Source of the DNA: Escherichia coli
Lineage (GTDB): Bacteria; Pseudomonadota; Gammaproteobacteria; Enterobacterales; Enterobacteriaceae
Assembly: GCF_050920415.1 (NCBI RefSeq)
Contig: NZ_CP169309.1
Reading direction: 5' to 3' (one strand)
Length of the DNA: 64,000 bases
Made by a program: the position numbers and the translations under genes. The notes below the pieces were generated by a model, which saw only the letters and a program-made list of their open reading frames with translations, ran no database searches and was not told where the DNA came from. Positions 1,077 through 9,236 of this stretch are shown here, one piece after another. Positions within the stretch are counted from its first letter, which is position 1; each line of letters opens with the position of its first letter.

Positions 1077-1439
1077 TTGATGGGGATAGAATTTGTTTTG
1101 CCTTACCCGCCGACGGTAAATACCTACTGGCGTCGTCGTGGCAGCACATATTTTGTATCAAAAGCAGGGGAGCGTTATCGCCGGGATGTGGCGCTTATTG
1201 TTCGCCAGCAGCGGCTGAAATTAAATCTGTCCGGAAGGCTGGCAATAAAAATTATTGCAGAGCCACCGGATAAGCGCCGTCGTGACCTGGACAATATTCT
1301 GAAAGCACCACTGGATGCACTGACACATGCGGGACTGCTTATCGACGACGAGCAGTTTGATGAAGTTAATATTATGCGCGGTCAGGTTGTTCCCGGTGGT
1401 CGGCTGGGGATAAAAATCACAGAACTGGAGTGCGCATGA
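1077..1439 (+). CDS. rusA: RusA crossover junction endodeoxyribonuclease (Holliday junction resolvase)
   Basis: 120-aa translation recognisably matches the RusA family; typical nin-region position upstream of Q. Confidence 0.9.
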   Translation: MMGIEFVLPYPPTVNTYWRRRGSTYFVSKAGERYRRDVALIVRQQRLKLNLSGRLAIKIIAEPPDKRRRDLDNILKAPLDALTHAGLLIDDEQFDEVNIMRGQVVPGGRLGIKITELECA

Positions 1440-2101
1440 ATAACCAGTATTTACAGTTTGTGCGTGAGCAGCTCACGATCGCCACCGCTGATTTGAGTGG
1501 AGCAACAAAAGGTCAGCTTGAAGCCTGGCAGGAGAATGCCATGTTCAATACAGGGCGTTACAGACGTAAAAAAATCCGGTACCGCGATAAGGTCACTGGA
1601 AAAATAGTAACGCTGGATAATCCACCGATCCCGGGAAAGCAATCGCTGGCGAAAGGTTCATCAATTGCCCTGGTCAGTCCGGTTGAGTTTTCGACATCAT
1701 CATGGCGACGCGCCGTTCTGTCTCTTGAAGAACATCATAAAGCCTGGCTGCTGTGGTGTTACAGCGGTAGCATTTGCTGGGAGCATCAGATCGCGATAAC
1801 GCAGTGGGCGTGGATTGAATTTAATGCTCAATCCGGTACCAGAAAAATTGCAGGAAAAACTCTGGTGCGCCTGAAGACGTTGAGCTGGTTGGCGGCGCAG
1901 GCGGTAAAAGCTGAGCTTTTTGGTGGGGAAGGTTACGAATACCAGGAACTGGCGTTACTGGTGGGAGTAACAACCAAAAACTGGTCCAAGACATTTACTG
2001 GTCACTGGGTTGCAATGAAACACATTTTTCATCGGCTGGATAGTGAAGCTTTATTGTTAGTGGAGAGAACACGTTCAAAACAAAAGGCGGCATTTTCATA
2101 G
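1430..2101 (+). CDS. Putative late-gene antiterminator (Q-family by position)
   Basis: 223-aa ORF immediately upstream of a promoter plus short-transcript terminator (pR'/tR' arrangement) and the late region; assignment by synteny, sequence not confidently recognised. Confidence 0.45.
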   Translation: MRMNNQYLQFVREQLTIATADLSGATKGQLEAWQENAMFNTGRYRRKKIRYRDKVTGKIVTLDNPPIPGKQSLAKGSSIALVSPVEFSTSSWRRAVLSLEEHHKAWLLWCYSGSICWEHQIAITQWAWIEFNAQSGTRKIAGKTLVRLKTLSWLAAQAVKAELFGGEGYEYQELALLVGVTTKNWSKTFTGHWVAMKHIFHRLDSEALLLVERTRSKQKAAFS

Positions 2102-2108
2102 CAAAGTA

Positions 2109-2137
2109 TTGCAAAAGTAGATTAAAACGCATATATT
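2109..2137 (+). promoter_or_regulatory. pR'-like late promoter (TTGCAA -17 bp- TATATT) immediately after the Q-like stop
   Basis: -35 TTGCAA at 2109-2114, 17-bp spacer, -10 TATATT at 2132-2137. Confidence 0.4.
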
Positions 2138-2188
2138 TCGTGTAAATCTGATATTTTGCCGTTTTTATACGTGATGGCAAAGCTAGTA

Positions 2189-2214
2189 AAACCCGCGACC
2201 GAGCGGGTTTTTTA
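2189..2214 (+). terminator. tR'-like rho-independent terminator (aaacccgc-gaccga-gcgggttt + T-run)
   Basis: Perfect 8-bp stem, 6-nt loop, followed by T-run; about 50-70 nt downstream of the pR'-like promoter, as for lambda 6S RNA. Confidence 0.6.
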
Positions 2215-2287
2215 TCCCCCCAAAAAATGGCATAGACATTAAACGTGATGACGATTGTGCCAATACTTTCTCCATCAATGACGCCCC

Positions 2288-2355: not shown

Positions 2356-3069
2356 ATGAATGACAGTGCTCTGCTCAGAAACTCTTCACTTTTTGTTGCT
2401 TATATGGGCTGTCTAGGATGGGGAAGCGCTTATTTCTATGGATGGGGTACTTCATTTTACTATGGCTTTCCATGGTGGGTTGTCGGGGCTGGTGTCGATG
2501 ATGTTGCACGAAGTTTGTTTTATGCTGTGACAGTTATCGTTATATTCCTTATTGGATGGGGAGTTGGTATTGTTTTCTTTTTGGGCATAAAACAAAAGCG
2601 CAATATACAAAATTTGAGTTTTATCCGGCTTTTTCTCGCGATATTGCTGCTTTTTATTCCACCTGTTCTGGAGTTTTCGGTAATTCATCAGCATGTTGAG
2701 CCAGATGTACTGATTTTCTGCATTCTTGCTGCCTTTACAATCACGCTTTTTGTCAGGTCTGGAAGAAGACTTGTTTCAGTCAAATGTTTTTCGGAAATGT
2801 CTTTTATTCGCCATCACCGAATTGAGTTCATGATGGCTGGGTTTATGATTTATTTCTGGGCATTCTCTCTTATTGCCGGTTGGTACAAACCACAGTTTAA
2901 GAGGGAATATCAGGCGATCCACTATGAGAATGTATGGTATTACATTATTGCGCGTTATGATGATCGTCTGGTGTTATCGAAATCATACAGGAGTGGGGGT
3001 AAGAAATTCGTTATATTTAATAGCGGAAATATTAATGATTTTGAAATTAATACTATCAGAGTGCGTTAA
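2356..3069 (+). CDS. Uncharacterised integral membrane protein (about 4 predicted TM helices, Trp/Tyr/Gly-rich N-terminus, about 60-aa soluble C-terminal tail); moron
   Basis: 237-aa ORF, AT-rich codon usage unlike flanking phage genes, hydrophobic segments visible in translation; no family recognised. Confidence 0.7.
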   Translation: MNDSALLRNSSLFVAYMGCLGWGSAYFYGWGTSFYYGFPWWVVGAGVDDVARSLFYAVTVIVIFLIGWGVGIVFFLGIKQKRNIQNLSFIRLFLAILLLFIPPVLEFSVIHQHVEPDVLIFCILAAFTITLFVRSGRRLVSVKCFSEMSFIRHHRIEFMMAGFMIYFWAFSLIAGWYKPQFKREYQAIHYENVWYYIIARYDDRLVLSKSYRSGGKKFVIFNSGNINDFEINTIRVR

Positions 3070-3243
3070 AATTTCTTGAGTAATGAAGATTTTTACTGCC
3101 CGGCATTGAGCGGTTTTTTTATGCCAGAAAAATGGTGTGGTACATAAAATGTGCTGGTGGTTATTAATACCGGTCTTTCAGCTTGCTGGCTTTTTCGACA
3201 AGAGTTATTGGTATGTCACGTTAACCAATAAAGAGAAAAAGAC

Positions 3244-3441
3244 ATGCTAAAACAGCAGGATATGACCGAAACAGCCAGAGTGGTGTTTAATGAATTAAGC
3301 GTCACTGAACCGGCAACAGTTGGGGAAATTGCGCAGAATACTTACCTTTCACGCGAACGCTGCCAGTTAATACTGACCCAGCTTGTGATGGCGGGTCTGG
3401 CAGATTATCAGTTCGGTTGTTACAGACGCCTTCCGCAGTGA
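3244..3441 (+). CDS. Small (65 aa) putative winged-helix/HTH DNA-binding protein
   Basis: Helix-turn-helix-like segment (ATVGEIAQNTYLSRERCQLILTQLVMAGLA); own rho-independent terminator overlapping the stop. Confidence 0.45.
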   Translation: MLKQQDMTETARVVFNELSVTEPATVGEIAQNTYLSRERCQLILTQLVMAGLADYQFGCYRRLPQ

Positions 3442-3452
3442 AGGCTTTTTAC
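3428..3452 (+). terminator. Rho-independent terminator (gccttc-cgcagt-gaaggc + TTTTT)
   Basis: 6-bp perfect stem plus T-run overlapping the stop of the 65-aa ORF. Confidence 0.5.
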
Positions 3453-3591
3453 TTTGTGGTAATGGGCGGCTGGTGGGTGTTAGCGGCACCTGCCAGCCAT
3501 CTGCTCATGTGTTGAGGTCACAAGCAAACCTCAGGCCCATCTGCTTTGCGCAAAAGCGGTATGAGCCTATCAGAGAAGTGCTTATTGATCT

Positions 3592-4677
3592 ATGGCTAAT
3601 ACTGTAAAAATATCCAGTTGTGAGTTAATCAACACTGATTGCCTGGAATTTATCCAGACCTTATCGGAAAACTCTGTCGATCTTATAGTCACAGACCCGC
3701 CATATTTTAAAGTGAAGCCCGAGGGCTGGGATAACCAGTGGAAGGGCGACGATGATTACCTAAAATGGCTGGACCAGTGTCTGGCTCAGTTCTGGCGGGT
3801 ACTGAAGCCTGCCGGAAGTCTTTACCTGTTTTGTGGTCATCGCCTGGCATCTGATATCGAAATCATGATGCGTGAGCGCTTTAATGTGCTGAACCACATT
3901 ATCTGGGCGAAGCCGTCCGGACGCTGGAACGGGTGCAACAAAGAAAGCCTGCGGGCGTATTTCCCGGCAACAGAGCGCATTCTGTTTGCCGAACATTATC
4001 AGGGGCCATATCAGCCAAAAAATGCCGGCTATGCGGCAAAGGAGCGCGAGCTTAAACAACACGTCATGGCCCCGCTGATTTTTTACTTTCGTGATGCGCG
4101 TGAATCACTGGGAATAACGTCCAAACAGATAGCGGAAGCCACCGGAAAGAAAAACATGGTGTCGCACTGGTTTGGTACCAGTCAGTGGCAGTTACCGAAC
4201 GAAGCTGATTACAGAAAACTGCAGGCGCTGTTCGCGCGTGTTGCAGAAGAAAAACACCAGCGTGGGGAGCTGGCAACGCCACACCAACTGCTGGTCAGCA
4301 CATACAGTGAACTGAACCGGCAATATGCCAGTCTGCTTGAGGAATACAAATCTCTGCGGCGTTATTTTTCTGTATCGGCCGCCGTTCCTTATACGGATGT
4401 CTGGACGCATAAGCCCGTACAGTATTATCCGGGTAAGCATCCCTGCGAAAAACCGGCGGATATGTTGCGTCAGATAATTTCTGCCAGCAGTCGTCCGGGG
4501 GATGTGGTTGCGGATTTTTTTATGGGATCGGGGGCAACAATAAAAGCAGCAATGGGATTGGGGCGTCGCACGATTGGGGTTGAACTTGAGTCCGGGCGTT
4601 TTGAACAAACAGTTGGTGAAATATTGGTGCTGAACGATAAATTGCGAAATGCACAATTAGATAAGAACAGGAGCTAA
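3592..4677 (+). CDS. DNA methyltransferase, beta-class (N6-adenine or N4-cytosine); apparently orphan
   Basis: Motif IV DPPY near N-terminus (LIVTDPPYF), motif I FxGxG-like (DFFMGSGAT) near C-terminus; no restriction endonuclease ORF adjacent. Confidence 0.85.
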   Translation: MANTVKISSCELINTDCLEFIQTLSENSVDLIVTDPPYFKVKPEGWDNQWKGDDDYLKWLDQCLAQFWRVLKPAGSLYLFCGHRLASDIEIMMRERFNVLNHIIWAKPSGRWNGCNKESLRAYFPATERILFAEHYQGPYQPKNAGYAAKERELKQHVMAPLIFYFRDARESLGITSKQIAEATGKKNMVSHWFGTSQWQLPNEADYRKLQALFARVAEEKHQRGELATPHQLLVSTYSELNRQYASLLEEYKSLRRYFSVSAAVPYTDVWTHKPVQYYPGKHPCEKPADMLRQIISASSRPGDVVADFFMGSGATIKAAMGLGRRTIGVELESGRFEQTVGEILVLNDKLRNAQLDKNRS

Positions 4678-5197
4678 TCCTCGATTAATATCTAAGCCAA
4701 GCAGGATGCTTGGAAGTTCTGATATATTCTTATCGTTTTTCGGTATTTAAAACTGATTTTCGCTGGTTGCGAAAGCACGTGGTCGGGCACTGCGTTCACA
4801 CATGCAGGAGGGTGTGAAGTCAGCTTTTTTTCTGTGTATTCAGATGGCGTTCTGATTCTATAACGAGTTACGTGGACATCAGGGATGGAGAGAATAGGAA
4901 CGCCATCTTAATACATTTTCCCCGTTTATTTGATATATCTTCCGGATAAGGGATTAGGTCTGGTTTTTTATGTCATTCAATAACGCTCTTCTATACTGTA
5001 TACAATACTTTATCCTGGCAGTGTGTTTAAAACCTGAACTTATCCTTTGTTTCGTTTATAGACAGAAGGGTTAATATCGACTTATCATCAGCAGGATGGC
5101 AACAGATGTGTAAGCAGCTGGTCACCAGTTATACTTCAGTGGTACTTCTGAGTGCTTCTCTCCGTGAAATGATTATCATCCAGATGACAGGAGTAGA

Positions 5198-5476
5198 GTG
5201 AATATTGATGATATTTCCAGGTGCTCCAGCTTGTTGCAGCGTATTGAGGATGTTAATGCTGAACGAGCCAGGGCCTTTAGTCGTTTGACAGTTATATTTT
5301 CTACCCCTGATCGCCTTTCAGGAAAGAACATTGTTTTATTAAACAGTGATGCCATCCATAAGGTTTTTGAAGAGTTCATGGCTGCTAATTCAGAATTGCT
5401 GGCTCTTGTTGAGGAATACAACGAGATAGCCAGCCGTGTCGGTATGGATGAATTCAACGTCATACTTCGTGGATAA
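5198..5476 (+). CDS. Hypothetical protein (92 aa), GTG start with AGGAG RBS
   Basis: ORF preceded by AGGAG at 5187-5191 and followed by a strong terminator. Confidence 0.45.
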   Translation: MNIDDISRCSSLLQRIEDVNAERARAFSRLTVIFSTPDRLSGKNIVLLNSDAIHKVFEEFMAANSELLALVEEYNEIASRVGMDEFNVILRG

Positions 5477-5499
5477 AAACATGCTTCATATTTTCTGTT

Positions 5500-5524
5500 A
5501 GCTCGCTACGGCGAGCTTTTTTTG
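5500..5524 (+). terminator. Rho-independent terminator (agctcgc-tacg-gcgagct + T-run)
   Basis: 7-bp perfect stem, tetraloop, T-run of 8. Confidence 0.65.
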
Positions 5525-5657
5525 TATCTGAGCCACACCTGGCGCACATCAAAAACACAGAGCCTTTCAGGAGGTGCTTACGGGATTGTCAGTGTGACTT
5601 TCACTGTGGGCTGGTAACCATCTGGCGCAGGCTCGTCTACGCAAAGGAAAAGTCACG

Positions 5658-6083
5658 ATGTTAGGTATTTTCAAAAAGAAAACCCGCAAGGCCATCACAG
5701 AAGTGAAGAAGATGGAGAACCGTGATGCGGTGGAGGCGACCGTCTGGGGCGCATATTCCATTGCATATGCCGACGGCACCTGCGATGCGAAAGAAATCGC
5801 AGTACTGGAGAAAACTATTGCTGCGCTTCCTGCTTTTGCACCGTTCTCTGGTGAGATTGCCCAGATGAGCGCCAATATCCGCGCCCGTTATGAAGCGTCA
5901 CCGCGTAGTGCGAATGCGCATGCATTGCGTGAGCTGGCTGATGTGGCGGGGACAACTGAGGCGGTTGACGTGCTTTGCCTCTGTCTGGATATCGCTGATC
6001 AGGATGGCATTGGTCCGGATGAAGAAGCGCAGCTCAAGAAAATTGCACAGGCGCTTCAGTTACCACTGGAGCAGTATCTGTGA
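5658..6083 (+). CDS. TerB-like (tellurite-resistance TerB / DjlA N-terminal domain family) protein
   Basis: 141-aa helical protein whose acidic C-terminal motif (LCLCLDIADQDGIGPDEEAQLKKIAQAL) is typical of TerB-domain proteins. Confidence 0.55.
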   Translation: MLGIFKKKTRKAITEVKKMENRDAVEATVWGAYSIAYADGTCDAKEIAVLEKTIAALPAFAPFSGEIAQMSANIRARYEASPRSANAHALRELADVAGTTEAVDVLCLCLDIADQDGIGPDEEAQLKKIAQALQLPLEQYL

Positions 6084-6232
6084 AAAGTGCGGGCCTTGTG
6101 CTGGCTGCCATCCTGTTGTTTCTGGTAGTGGCAGTGGATTTCACTGGATGGCTGATGTCGGTACTGGCTGATGGTGTGCTGGTGGCGATGGTAACGGTCT
6201 TACTCTGGCCTTTACTTCGCAAATCTGAATAA
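6080..6232 (+). CDS. Possible small hydrophobic membrane protein (about 50 aa, GTG start overlapping the TerB-like stop)
   Basis: Unannotated frame reading VKSAGLVLAAILLFLVVAVDFTGWLMSVLADGVLVAMVTVLLWPLLRKSE; two hydrophobic stretches; start codon uncertain. Confidence 0.3.
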   Translation: MKSAGLVLAAILLFLVVAVDFTGWLMSVLADGVLVAMVTVLLWPLLRKSE

Positions 6233-6317
6233 ACAGCCTACAAAAGGTATCTGCGGGTACCTTTGATAAAGTTTTTTAGGGCCGCTGATGGTCCTTTTTA
6301 TTTACAGGAGAATAAAT

Positions 6318-6710
6318 ATGTCTGAACCCTTATCCGGTTCCGGCACTGCTGTGGCGCTCGGCGGGGCGACGGTATTCGGGCTGTTTACCGGGACGGATTT
6401 CGGGATTGTATTTGGTGCGTTCGCTGGTGCGTTATTTGTGGCAACAATGCCGCAGACACTTTCAGCCTGGCGTGTGGCTGCACATTTTCTGGTGTCCTTT
6501 ATTGTTGGTGTGCTTGGGGCCCGTGGTGTGGCCGGTTACATGGCGGAACGTATTGGGTTTAACAGTGCTTCCGTTGATGCGTTGTGTGCGGTCCTGGTGT
6601 CGGTGCTCTCAGTAAAAGTCCTGTCATTCATCCACCAGCAGGAGATTACATCACTGGTATCCGGTCTGTTCTCCCGTCAGCGTGGAGGAGGTGGTGGTAA
6701 TGACAAATAA
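6318..6710 (+). CDS. Putative holin (multi-TM membrane protein, Gly-rich C-terminus)
   Basis: ATG at 6318 preceded by AGGAG; about 3 hydrophobic helices; lies upstream of the endolysin. Confidence 0.55.
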   Translation: MSEPLSGSGTAVALGGATVFGLFTGTDFGIVFGAFAGALFVATMPQTLSAWRVAAHFLVSFIVGVLGARGVAGYMAERIGFNSASVDALCAVLVSVLSVKVLSFIHQQEITSLVSGLFSRQRGGGGGNDK

Positions 6711-6978
6711 TCTTCCAGGATTACTGAATGCGGCGTTATGTACGGTTATCGTACTGACGCTTTTTTTCTACCGCAGAAAAGAGTCCCGACACAAACCGCT
6801 GATATCGTGGTGCGCCTGGTGTCTGATGCTGTTGTATGCGATAACGCCGTTAAGTTATCTCTGTGGTCATCCGTTGCCGGCAGACTGGCTGGTAGTGATG
6901 CTGAACCTGGTGTTTGGTGTCATGGTAGTGCGTGCGCGCGGTAATGTTTCAAAAATTTTTGCTTTCCTGAGTGGCTGA
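6700..6978 (+). CDS. Putative holin/antiholin-like small membrane protein
   Basis: 92-aa hydrophobic protein (start MTNNLPGLL) overlapping the preceding gene's end and the endolysin start. Confidence 0.5.
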   Translation: MTNNLPGLLNAALCTVIVLTLFFYRRKESRHKPLISWCAWCLMLLYAITPLSYLCGHPLPADWLVVMLNLVFGVMVVRARGNVSKIFAFLSG

Positions 6979-7525
6979 TATGAAATCGAGAGATGAAATT
7001 TTTGATGAAATCCTCGGAAAAGAGGGGGGGTATGTCAGTCATCCTGACGATACAGGCGGAGCGACGAAGTGGGGAATTACTGAAAAAGTGGCGCGCGCGC
7101 ATGGTTACCGTGGTGATATGCGTGATTTGAGCCGCGGGCAGGCTCTGGAAATCCTTGAGGCAGACTATTGGTATGGACCTCGTTTTGACCAGGTGGCAAA
7201 CCTGTCTCCTGATATTGCTGCAGAACTGTGTGATACCGGGGTAAACATGGGGCCGTCGGTAGCCACAAAAATGCTTCAGCGCTGGCTGAATGTGTTTAAT
7301 CAGAAGGGAATGCTGTATCCGGACATAGTTACAGACGGGGGGATCGGGCCGCGAACCATTAATGCGTTACGTTCTTATCTGAAAAATCGCGGCAGGGATG
7401 GCGAACTGGTACTGGTGAAAGCCCTGAACTGTACGCAGGGTGAGCGTTATCTGGCGCTGGCAGAGAAACGCGAGGCTAACGAGTCGTTTGTCTATGGCTG
7501 GATGAAAGAGCGCGTTGGTTTATAA
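6971..7525 (+). CDS. Endolysin, glycoside hydrolase family 108 with C-terminal peptidoglycan-binding domain
   Basis: N-terminal EILGKEGGYVSHPDDTGGATKWGI motif characteristic of GH108 lysozymes. Confidence 0.85.
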   Translation: MADMKSRDEIFDEILGKEGGYVSHPDDTGGATKWGITEKVARAHGYRGDMRDLSRGQALEILEADYWYGPRFDQVANLSPDIAAELCDTGVNMGPSVATKMLQRWLNVFNQKGMLYPDIVTDGGIGPRTINALRSYLKNRGRDGELVLVKALNCTQGERYLALAEKREANESFVYGWMKERVGL

Positions 7526-7558: not shown

Positions 7559-7726
7559 ATTGTTCAAAAAACGAAAGAACGGAGGTACGTATGTACGCAC
7601 TGAAAAAGATTACGGTAACTGAAGATGGTCGTCAGTAGACTGGCCCCCTGAATCTCCAGACAACCAGTATCACTTAAATAAGTGATAGTCTTAATACTAG
7701 TTTTTAGACTAGTCATTGGAGAACAG

Positions 7727-8092
7727 ATGATTGATGTCTTAGGGCCGGAGAAACGCAGACGGCGTACCACACAGGAAAAGATCGCAATTGTTCAGCAGAG
7801 CTTTGAACCGGGGATGACGGTCTCCCTCGTTGCCCGGCAACATGGTGTAGCAGCCAGCCAGTTATTTCTCTGGCGTAAGCAATACCAGGAAGGAAGTCTT
7901 ACTGCTGTCGCCGCCGGAGAACAGGTTGTTCCTGCCTCTGAACTTGCTGCCGCCATGAAGCAGATTAAAGAACTCCAGCGCCTGCTCGGCAAGAAAACGA
8001 TGGAAAATGAACTCCTCAAAGAAGCCGTTGAATATGGACGGGCAAAAAAGTGGATAGCGCACGCGCCCTTATTGCCCGGGGATGGGGAGTAA
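7727..8092 (+). CDS. insC: IS2 transposase OrfA (InsC)
   Basis: Translation [41 protein letters not shown]... matches IS2 InsC. Confidence 0.9.
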
Positions 8093-8955
8093 GCTTAGTC
8101 AGCCGTTGTCTCCGGGTGTCGCGTGCGCAGTTGCACGTCATTCTCAGACGAACCGATGACTGGATGGATGGCCGCCGCAGTCGTCACACTGATGATACGG
8201 ATGTGCTTCTCCGTATACACCATGTTATCGGAGAGCTGCCCACGTATGGTTATCGTCGGGTATGGGCGCTGCTTCGCAGACAGGCAGAACTTGATGGTAT
8301 GCCTGCAATCAATGCCAAACGTGTTTACCGGATCATGCGCCAGAATGCGCTGTTGCTTGAGCGAAAACCTGCTGTACCGCCATCGAAACGGGCACATACA
8401 GGCAGAGTGGCCGTGAAAGAAAGCAATCAGCGATGGTGCTCTGACGGGTTCGAGTTCTGCTGTGATAACGGAGAGAGACTGCGTGTCACGTTCGCGCTGG
8501 ACTGCTGTGATCGTGAGGCACTGCACTGGGCGGTGACTACTGGCGGCTTCAACAGTGAAACAGTACAGGACGTCATGCTGGGAGCGGTGGAACGCCGCTT
8601 CGGCAACGATCTTCCGTCGTCTCCAGTGGAGTGGCTGACGGATAATGGTTCATGCTACCGGGCTAATGAAACACGCCAGTTCGCCCGGATGTTGGGACTT
8701 GAACCGAAGAACACGGCGGTGCGGAGTCCGGAGAGTAACGGAATAGCAGAGAGCTTCGTGAAAACGATAAAGCGTGACTACATCAGTATCATGCCCAAAC
8801 CAGACGGGTTAACGGCAGCAAAGAACCTTGCAGAGGCGTTCGAGCATTATAACGAATGGCATCCGCATAGTGCGCTGGGTTATCGCTCGCCACGGGAATA
8901 TCTGCGGCAGCGGGCTTGTAATGGGTTAAGTGATAACAGATGTCTGGAAATATAG
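8050..8955 (+). CDS. insD: IS2 transposase OrfB (InsD), DDE integrase-type
   Basis: 301-aa translation matches IS2 InsD; overlaps insC in the -1 frame as in IS2. Confidence 0.9.
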
Positions 8956-9236
8956 GGGCAAATCCAGTCAGGTTGAGGAAGTGCATGTCCTGGGGGGATA
9001 TGTATCGTATGGAGTTTTACCCGCGTAATACCCATCTGGCAGCAAAAATTGAGTATTGCCGGAACGGGAATATTTCATGTTTGCAGGTAGAGAAAACGGA
9101 TGAGGCTTATATCACTACGCTGAACGGCGATACGATGTCAGCGCCAATGATATAAGACAGTAATTCACCATTTGGATTGTCCGCTCCACCCAACATGTTG
9201 TTTCCTTAAGGTTCCTACACCACAAAGGGAACACTC

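Follow-up and report, generated by a model that had tools for sequence, protein, structure and literature searches.

The window analysed here, a 64-kb stretch of DNA that matches E. coli chromosomes at 99–100% identity, carries a prophage at the site occupied by Qin in K-12, with the integrase adjoining rspB and ydfJ split at the opposite end. Around the gene of interest, the prophage genes run in the order DUF968, rusA, Q, cargo genes, holins, endolysin, and terminase, and Q closes the early-right (nin) region, with the late and lysis genes downstream of it. The list of open reading frames gives Q as open from a GTG at 1430 to 2101 on the + strand; the likely start is the ATG at 1436, which overlaps the TGA stop of rusA as ATGA and is also where RefSeq starts the identical protein, WP_001064920.1 (221 aa), named "bacteriophage antitermination protein Q." Directly after Q lies a compact regulatory unit composed of a promoter (pR'), a predicted pause element, and an intrinsic terminator (tR'), followed by a long series of genes (Table 1). 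An open reading frame on the minus strand at 1995–2306 returned no family match and overlaps conserved regulatory DNA, and we therefore treated it as spurious.

Table 1. Features of the Q82-type locus, in positions of the window
Feature	Position	Strand	Basis
Q gene, Q82-family antiterminator, 221 aa	1436–2101	+	PF06323, PHROG 304, identity to phage 82 Q, RefSeq
TAG stop of Q, 8 codons before the stop of phage 82 and most relatives	2099–2101	+	Alignments
pR' -35, TTGCAA	2109–2114	+	Promoter scan; invariant in 9 phages
Promoter spacer, 17 nt, expected site of the QBE (Q-binding element)	2115–2131	+	Conservation and analogy with phage 82
pR' -10, TATATT	2132–2137	+	Promoter scan; conserved in alignment
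Inferred transcription start, A2144 (plausible range 2141–2145)	2144	+	7 nt past -10; isrJ match begins at 2141
Predicted sigma-dependent pause element, extended -10-like TGaTATTTT	2149–2157	+	Conservation and lambda geometry
First leader hairpin	2154–2182	+	Minimum-free-energy fold
tR' intrinsic terminator: 9-bp stem, 6-nt loop, run of 6 T	2188–2213	+	Fold
Genes past tR', reached only by read-through	2356–7525	+	Profile searches and RefSeq

The product of the Q gene belongs to a known antiterminator family. A Pfam search matched it to PF06323 (Phage_antiter_Q) at 298.7 bits (E = 3.5e-89; curated cut-off, 25 bits) across profile positions 1–216 of 220, and it also matched PHROG 304, "anti-termination protein Q-like," with an E-value of 2.8e-104. 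In a translated search of phage genomes, the Q of phage 82 (X92588.1) was 77% identical to the window Q over its full length; the Qs of the E. coli prophages PPompW and 689R5 are 90–91% identical to it, and that of Gifsy-1 (AntQ) is 65% identical. At E ≤ 0.1, Pfam yielded no family besides PF06323, with both the lambda-Q family (PF03589) and the Q21 family (PF06530) absent. A PDB sequence search gave a chance match only, with no lambda Q chain, and a search of NCBIfam gave nothing useful. PF06323 is the Q82 family, and the three Q families, Q82, lambda Q, and Q21, are unrelated to one another (PMC9388147). An earlier note on this DNA had proposed, with some hesitation, that the gene encodes a Q antiterminator, and the full-length match and the identity to phage 82 Q bear this out. 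The note's further suggestion of a distinct Q family holds insofar as the protein belongs to neither the lambda-Q nor the Q21 family, and fails insofar as the family is not a new one. The note would have given up its assignment had the gene resembled no Q family and another gene in the prophage been identified as Q; instead the gene has this clear similarity, and the RefSeq annotation of the prophage contains this single Q and no further one.

The one feature that could suggest something other than a Q, a Q of a new family, or a lambda-type Q that has shed its zinc finger is the low number of cysteines, of which there are exactly two, C108 and C114, as the earlier note had counted. Phage 82 Q itself contains none, nor do the Qs of PhiR47_2, ST11-VIM1phi8.1, and KO-TP1; the Gifsy-1 protein has one, and CobraSix Q has three, located elsewhere in the sequence. 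An alignment of 60 Q82-family sequences, reaching down to 20% identity, contains no invariant cysteine column. Because no cysteine is conserved in the family, having few of them is the Q82 norm, and there was no zinc finger to lose. Lambda Q does carry a zinc finger (PMC9371919), and the earlier note was right to expect that the window protein would lack one. The PF06323 match together with the identity to phage 82 Q rules out a new Q family and a lambda-type Q without its zinc finger; with a full-length, high-scoring match of this kind and with no other family appearing in Pfam at E ≤ 0.1, we give this whole set of readings, including that of a protein that is not a Q at all, practically no credence.

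The predicted structure can be set beside published models. AlphaFold models of phage 82 Q are reported to resemble both AlpA and lambda Q, save for the zinc finger inserted in the latter (PMC9371919). Our AlphaFold model of the window Q (mean pLDDT 89, pTM 0.77) predicts a helical body and, at the C terminus, a helix-turn-helix region; confidence is lower at about residues 20–80, where pLDDT averaged over blocks of 10 residues ranges from 58 to 92. A Foldseek search with this model ranked AlpA first, at a probability of 0.91 but with a weak E-value of 0.27, and this ranking agrees with the published remark on the likeness of 82 Q and AlpA. By PDB sequence search, Q82 is the only one of the three Q families for which we found no solved structure.

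The window allele is shorter than those of most relatives. The codon at 2099–2101 is TAG in the window, CAG in phage 82, and AAG in the closest relatives, and the window Q lacks the last 8 residues of the 229-aa proteins. This difference in length would fit a reading of the whole module as a relic, in which a premature TAG has weakened or inactivated Q, the prophage is defective, only a constitutive promoter and a terminator still work, and the late genes stay off. The nature of the lost segment speaks against such damage: the missing residues lie beyond the Pfam match (1–216 of 220) and beyond the last modelled helix, and they form the least conserved part of Q, with a different tail in Gifsy-1. 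The short form is also widespread and not a private defect. The exact 221-aa sequence occurs on 84 contigs and other 221-aa variants occur on 457 and 239 contigs, and the existence of several such variants argues against a recently dead allele. In full-length alleles, furthermore, the final Q codons serve a second time, as the -35 and the first part of the promoter spacer; in phage 82, the -35 falls within ...ATT GCA AAA CTG GAT TAA. The last codons of full-length alleles are thus probably held by DNA rather than by protein function, and this double use is probably why the DNA past the TAG is still intact in the window.

The sigma-70-type promoter beyond the stop codon, at 2109–2137, consists of TTGCAA, a 17-nt spacer, and TATATT. 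Its match to the consensus is, taken alone, at chance level, with 10 promoter-like sites in 6.5 kb vs 10.1 expected. We aligned the DNA that follows Q in nine phages of E. coli, Enterobacter, Klebsiella, and Salmonella, whose Qs are 58–91% identical to that of the window, and found a nearly invariant 46-bp promoter, spacer, and pause core at 2109–2154 (TTGCAAAA-nnnnAnTnAAAnnnnTAnATTTnnTGnAAATCTGATAT). This core contains the -35, the spacer, the -10, and the first bases of the transcript, and the sequence flanking it diverges freely. It remains about 90% identical even in the Enterobacter, Klebsiella, and Salmonella phages in which Q identity drops to 58–65%, and the 46-bp composite motif occurs once in the 64-kb window vs 0 expected. 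In phage 82, the QBE is located between the -35 and the -10 (PMC4914094); in our alignment, spacer positions 2115–2116, 2121, 2123, and 2125–2126 are invariant in all nine phages.

Conservation continues into the first transcribed bases, where AAATCTGATAT does not vary and nine of nine phages keep the pattern TATnnT. Using the geometry of lambda, we selected the hexamer TATTTT at +9 to +14 as the candidate pause element, and lambda-like spacing would put the pause itself near +25, at about position 2168. At the pR' of phage 82, the polymerase pauses 25 bp past the start (PMC9191641; PMC4914094), and by sequence the geometry of the core fits a pause at this distance.

The tR' stem (AAAACCCGC / GCGGGUUUU) occupies 2188–2211, and its T-run ends at 2213. 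Counted from the inferred start near 2144 to 2211–2214, the leader would be about 68–71 nt long, in line with the 50–70 nt that had been estimated before; folded as an 82-nt sequence, it has a free energy of -24.1 kcal/mol (z = -4.2). A terminator is present at the equivalent distance in eight of eight relatives, 45–75 nt after AAATCTG, and all nine phages have one there, with stems of three kinds (CCCGC/GCGGG, CCCGAGG/CCTTGGG, and CCTCGC/GCGGGG). The structure is kept while the stem sequence changes, which makes the compact promoter-terminator unit a trait of the Q82 family and not a local peculiarity. What the earlier note had described as a compact pR'/tR' unit is the conserved partner of the Q82 family, comprising promoter, pause element, and terminator. 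A simple terminator scan did not list tR', probably because the stem was extended into the A/T run, leaving too few T. A consensus fold of all leaders was poor, as terminators of unequal length were misaligned, and folds of single sequences were clearer. The first leader hairpin (UUUUGCCGUU / GAUGGCAAAG) is also found in 689R5, PPompW, and PhiR47_2, where one G-U pair becomes A-U; leaders of the Enterobacter/Salmonella type have a different, weaker hairpin in its place.

Family membership, conserved site architecture, terminator, and gene order all characterize this locus, which is very probably the late-gene switch of a lambda-like prophage at the Qin site, in which a Q82-family antiterminator gene is paired with its own site of action. 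For binding, pausing, and antitermination by the window allele, we rely on work with phage 82, whose Q is the only one for which QBE-dependent, NusA-stimulated terminator read-through has been shown (PMC4914094). By this analogy, sigma-70 RNA polymerase would start at pR' both in lysogens and on induction, and would pause about 25 nt downstream as sigma re-binds the -10-like TGaTATTTT. Without Q, the polymerase would stop at the hairpin and T-run of tR' and release a leader RNA of about 70 nt. After induction, Q, whose start overlaps the rusA stop, would be made from the early rightward transcript; it would bind the spacer element via its C-terminal helix-turn-helix and load on the paused polymerase with the help of NusA. 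Riding with the polymerase, Q would cause tR' and later terminators to be ignored, so that the cargo genes, the holins, and the endolysin are reached.

Comparison with known systems places the locus within this scheme. Because X92588.1 ends at the Q stop and the Q of PhiR47_2 is nearly identical to 82 Q, we used PhiR47_2 as a stand-in for the pR' DNA of phage 82. In addition to the similarity of their Qs, the window and phage 82 share a Q gene placed after rusA, a -35 TTGCAA overlapping the 3' end region of Q, a transcript start of AAATCTGATATTTTGCC (as in the 82-like PhiR47_2), and a short terminated leader. They differ in that the window Q is shortened by its TAG and has two cysteines, neither of them conserved, against none in 82 Q, that the window has no ylcG/orf45 gene between rusA and Q, and that it carries 4 kb of cargo ahead of the lysis genes; relative to the 82-like sequence, 4 of the 17 spacer bases differ, and the terminator stem is also unlike. 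With lambda (pR', qut, and 6S RNA), the locus has in common the job of Q, its gene position, and the logic by which the promoter holds a QBE, the polymerase makes a sigma-dependent pause, and the leader is terminated, whereas the two Qs have no detectable sequence similarity, the window Q is without a zinc finger, the predicted pause is at about +25 rather than +16/17, and the leader is about 70 nt rather than 194 nt. Sequence similarity to Pseudomonas AlpA and to phage 21 Q is likewise absent; Q82-type proteins may or may not share their closed ring in the RNA exit channel (PMC9388147). The unit as such is already known, as a RefSeq-annotated Q from one of three textbook Q families, and is a standard example; its use is as a clean Q82-type case, in which each component, from the promoter with its probable Q-binding spacer to the pause element and the terminator, is placed to the base.

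Beyond tR', the downstream series begins with genes for a PHROG 1521 membrane protein and a 65-aa protein; next come those for a DNA methyltransferase, a PHROG 2873 protein, and a TerB-like protein, and last those for two holins and for an endolysin, which lie on the same strand as Q. Further terminator-like hairpins lie on the + strand at 3428, 5500, and 6278; since these and tR' intervene, Q-modified polymerase would be needed for the lysis genes. About 4 kb of cargo (2356–6083) separates tR' from the holins. The PHROG 1521 membrane protein has no Pfam match, the 65-aa protein has weak winged-helix matches, and the methyltransferase was assigned by PADLOC to MTase_II (505 bits), and we saw no nuclease to partner it. 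Among the cargo genes, PADLOC found the methyltransferase alone, so nothing here points to a defence system linked with Q. In relatives, tRNA genes occupy the cargo position; the window has none there.

Relative to strain MFDS1022581, the window contains a 1331-bp insertion at 7636–8966 (with a 5-bp overlap in the mapping), just past the endolysin and where spanin genes would be expected. It holds two overlapping transposase-like open reading frames, which we take to resemble InsC and InsD of IS2. In MFDS1022581 itself, whose prophage is 99–100% identical to the window, RefSeq lists the portal, an IS21 transposase pair, and the tail-fibre as frameshifted or partial, and judging from these annotations in that strain, the prophage lineage may be defective. 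With insertion sequences present and with portal and tail-fibre genes frameshifted in a near-identical strain, a productive cycle may no longer result from the switch. These lesions, like the shortened Q, are what a relic would be expected to show, and we nonetheless consider a module with a disabled Q and silent late genes quite improbable, given the distribution of the 221-aa variants and the poor conservation of the lost residues.

The same stretch of DNA has a counterpart in a Salmonella small RNA. Window positions 2141–2212 match the full Rfam isrJ model (RF01393) at 23.4 bits (E = 0.76), a sub-threshold score, the gathering score of isrJ being 37 bits; because the score falls below this value over a full-model match, the window leader is a homologous locus and not an IsrJ member by Rfam's rule. 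Gifsy-1 scores 100.3 bits against the same model, four other relatives score 57–73, and the 82-like PhiR47_2 scores 30. As judged from sequence, the window leader is a divergent relative of Salmonella IsrJ, an RNA of 74 nt that experiments detected in the interval between STM2614 and STM2616 (PMC2330248). In Gifsy-1 (region 4015–4121 in the numbering of that locus), IsrJ begins at the Q82-type promoter and pause core and ends at the equivalent terminator. Since its promoter carries the Q82-type core, IsrJ appears to correspond to lambda 6S RNA, as the terminated leader made from the Gifsy-1 late promoter, and its detection would lend indirect support to the start and stop predicted in the window. 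We did not find this reading of IsrJ stated in the literature that we searched, one paper of which names IsrK, not IsrJ, as the antitermination-linked RNA of Gifsy-1 (PMC7547250). Should IsrJ, a virulence-linked RNA of Salmonella, be a late-promoter leader, this may help explain its constitutive production.

Gifsy-1 thus resembles the window in its AntQ (STM2617), in the 46-bp core upstream of IsrJ, and in the equivalent terminator, and differs from it in the low isrJ score of the window leader and in an IsrK/C4-type anti-repressor module between Q and promoter. In its own locus, positions 3180–4014 between Q and promoter contain Rfam matches to c4-a1b1, isrK, and C4 antisense RNA, after which comes STM2616, an anti-repressor-like gene; in the other phages examined, the Q82-type promoter comes directly after Q.

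These similarities raise the question of whether the leader itself has a function in trans. We regard it as rather unlikely that the window leader (about 2144–2213), made constitutively from pR', is a working trans-acting sRNA in E. coli lysogens and a counterpart of IsrJ; if it were, IsrJ-type sRNAs in general would be terminated leaders of Q82-type late promoters. A stronger version, in which the RNA of about 70 nt is the main product of the locus in lysogens and acts on host mRNAs in the way of IsrJ or StxS, is compatible with the Q switch and strikes us as unlikely. The full-length, if sub-threshold, isrJ match would agree with it, as would the relatives that score above the threshold and the precedent of StxS, a pR' leader that is a working sRNA (PMC7547250). 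On the other hand, past the first 20 nt or so at the 5' end (2141–2160, mostly the invariant AAATCTGATAT), both hairpins of the window leader are unlike those of IsrJ, it has no known target or known binding to a chaperone, and promoter, pause, and terminator function explains the conservation well enough. The late-gene switch remains our reading of the locus. Among the relatives, two Klebsiella phages match Rfam STnc100 above its threshold (1098–1290 and 1096–1290 in their own loci) about 100 nt past the Q82-type terminator.
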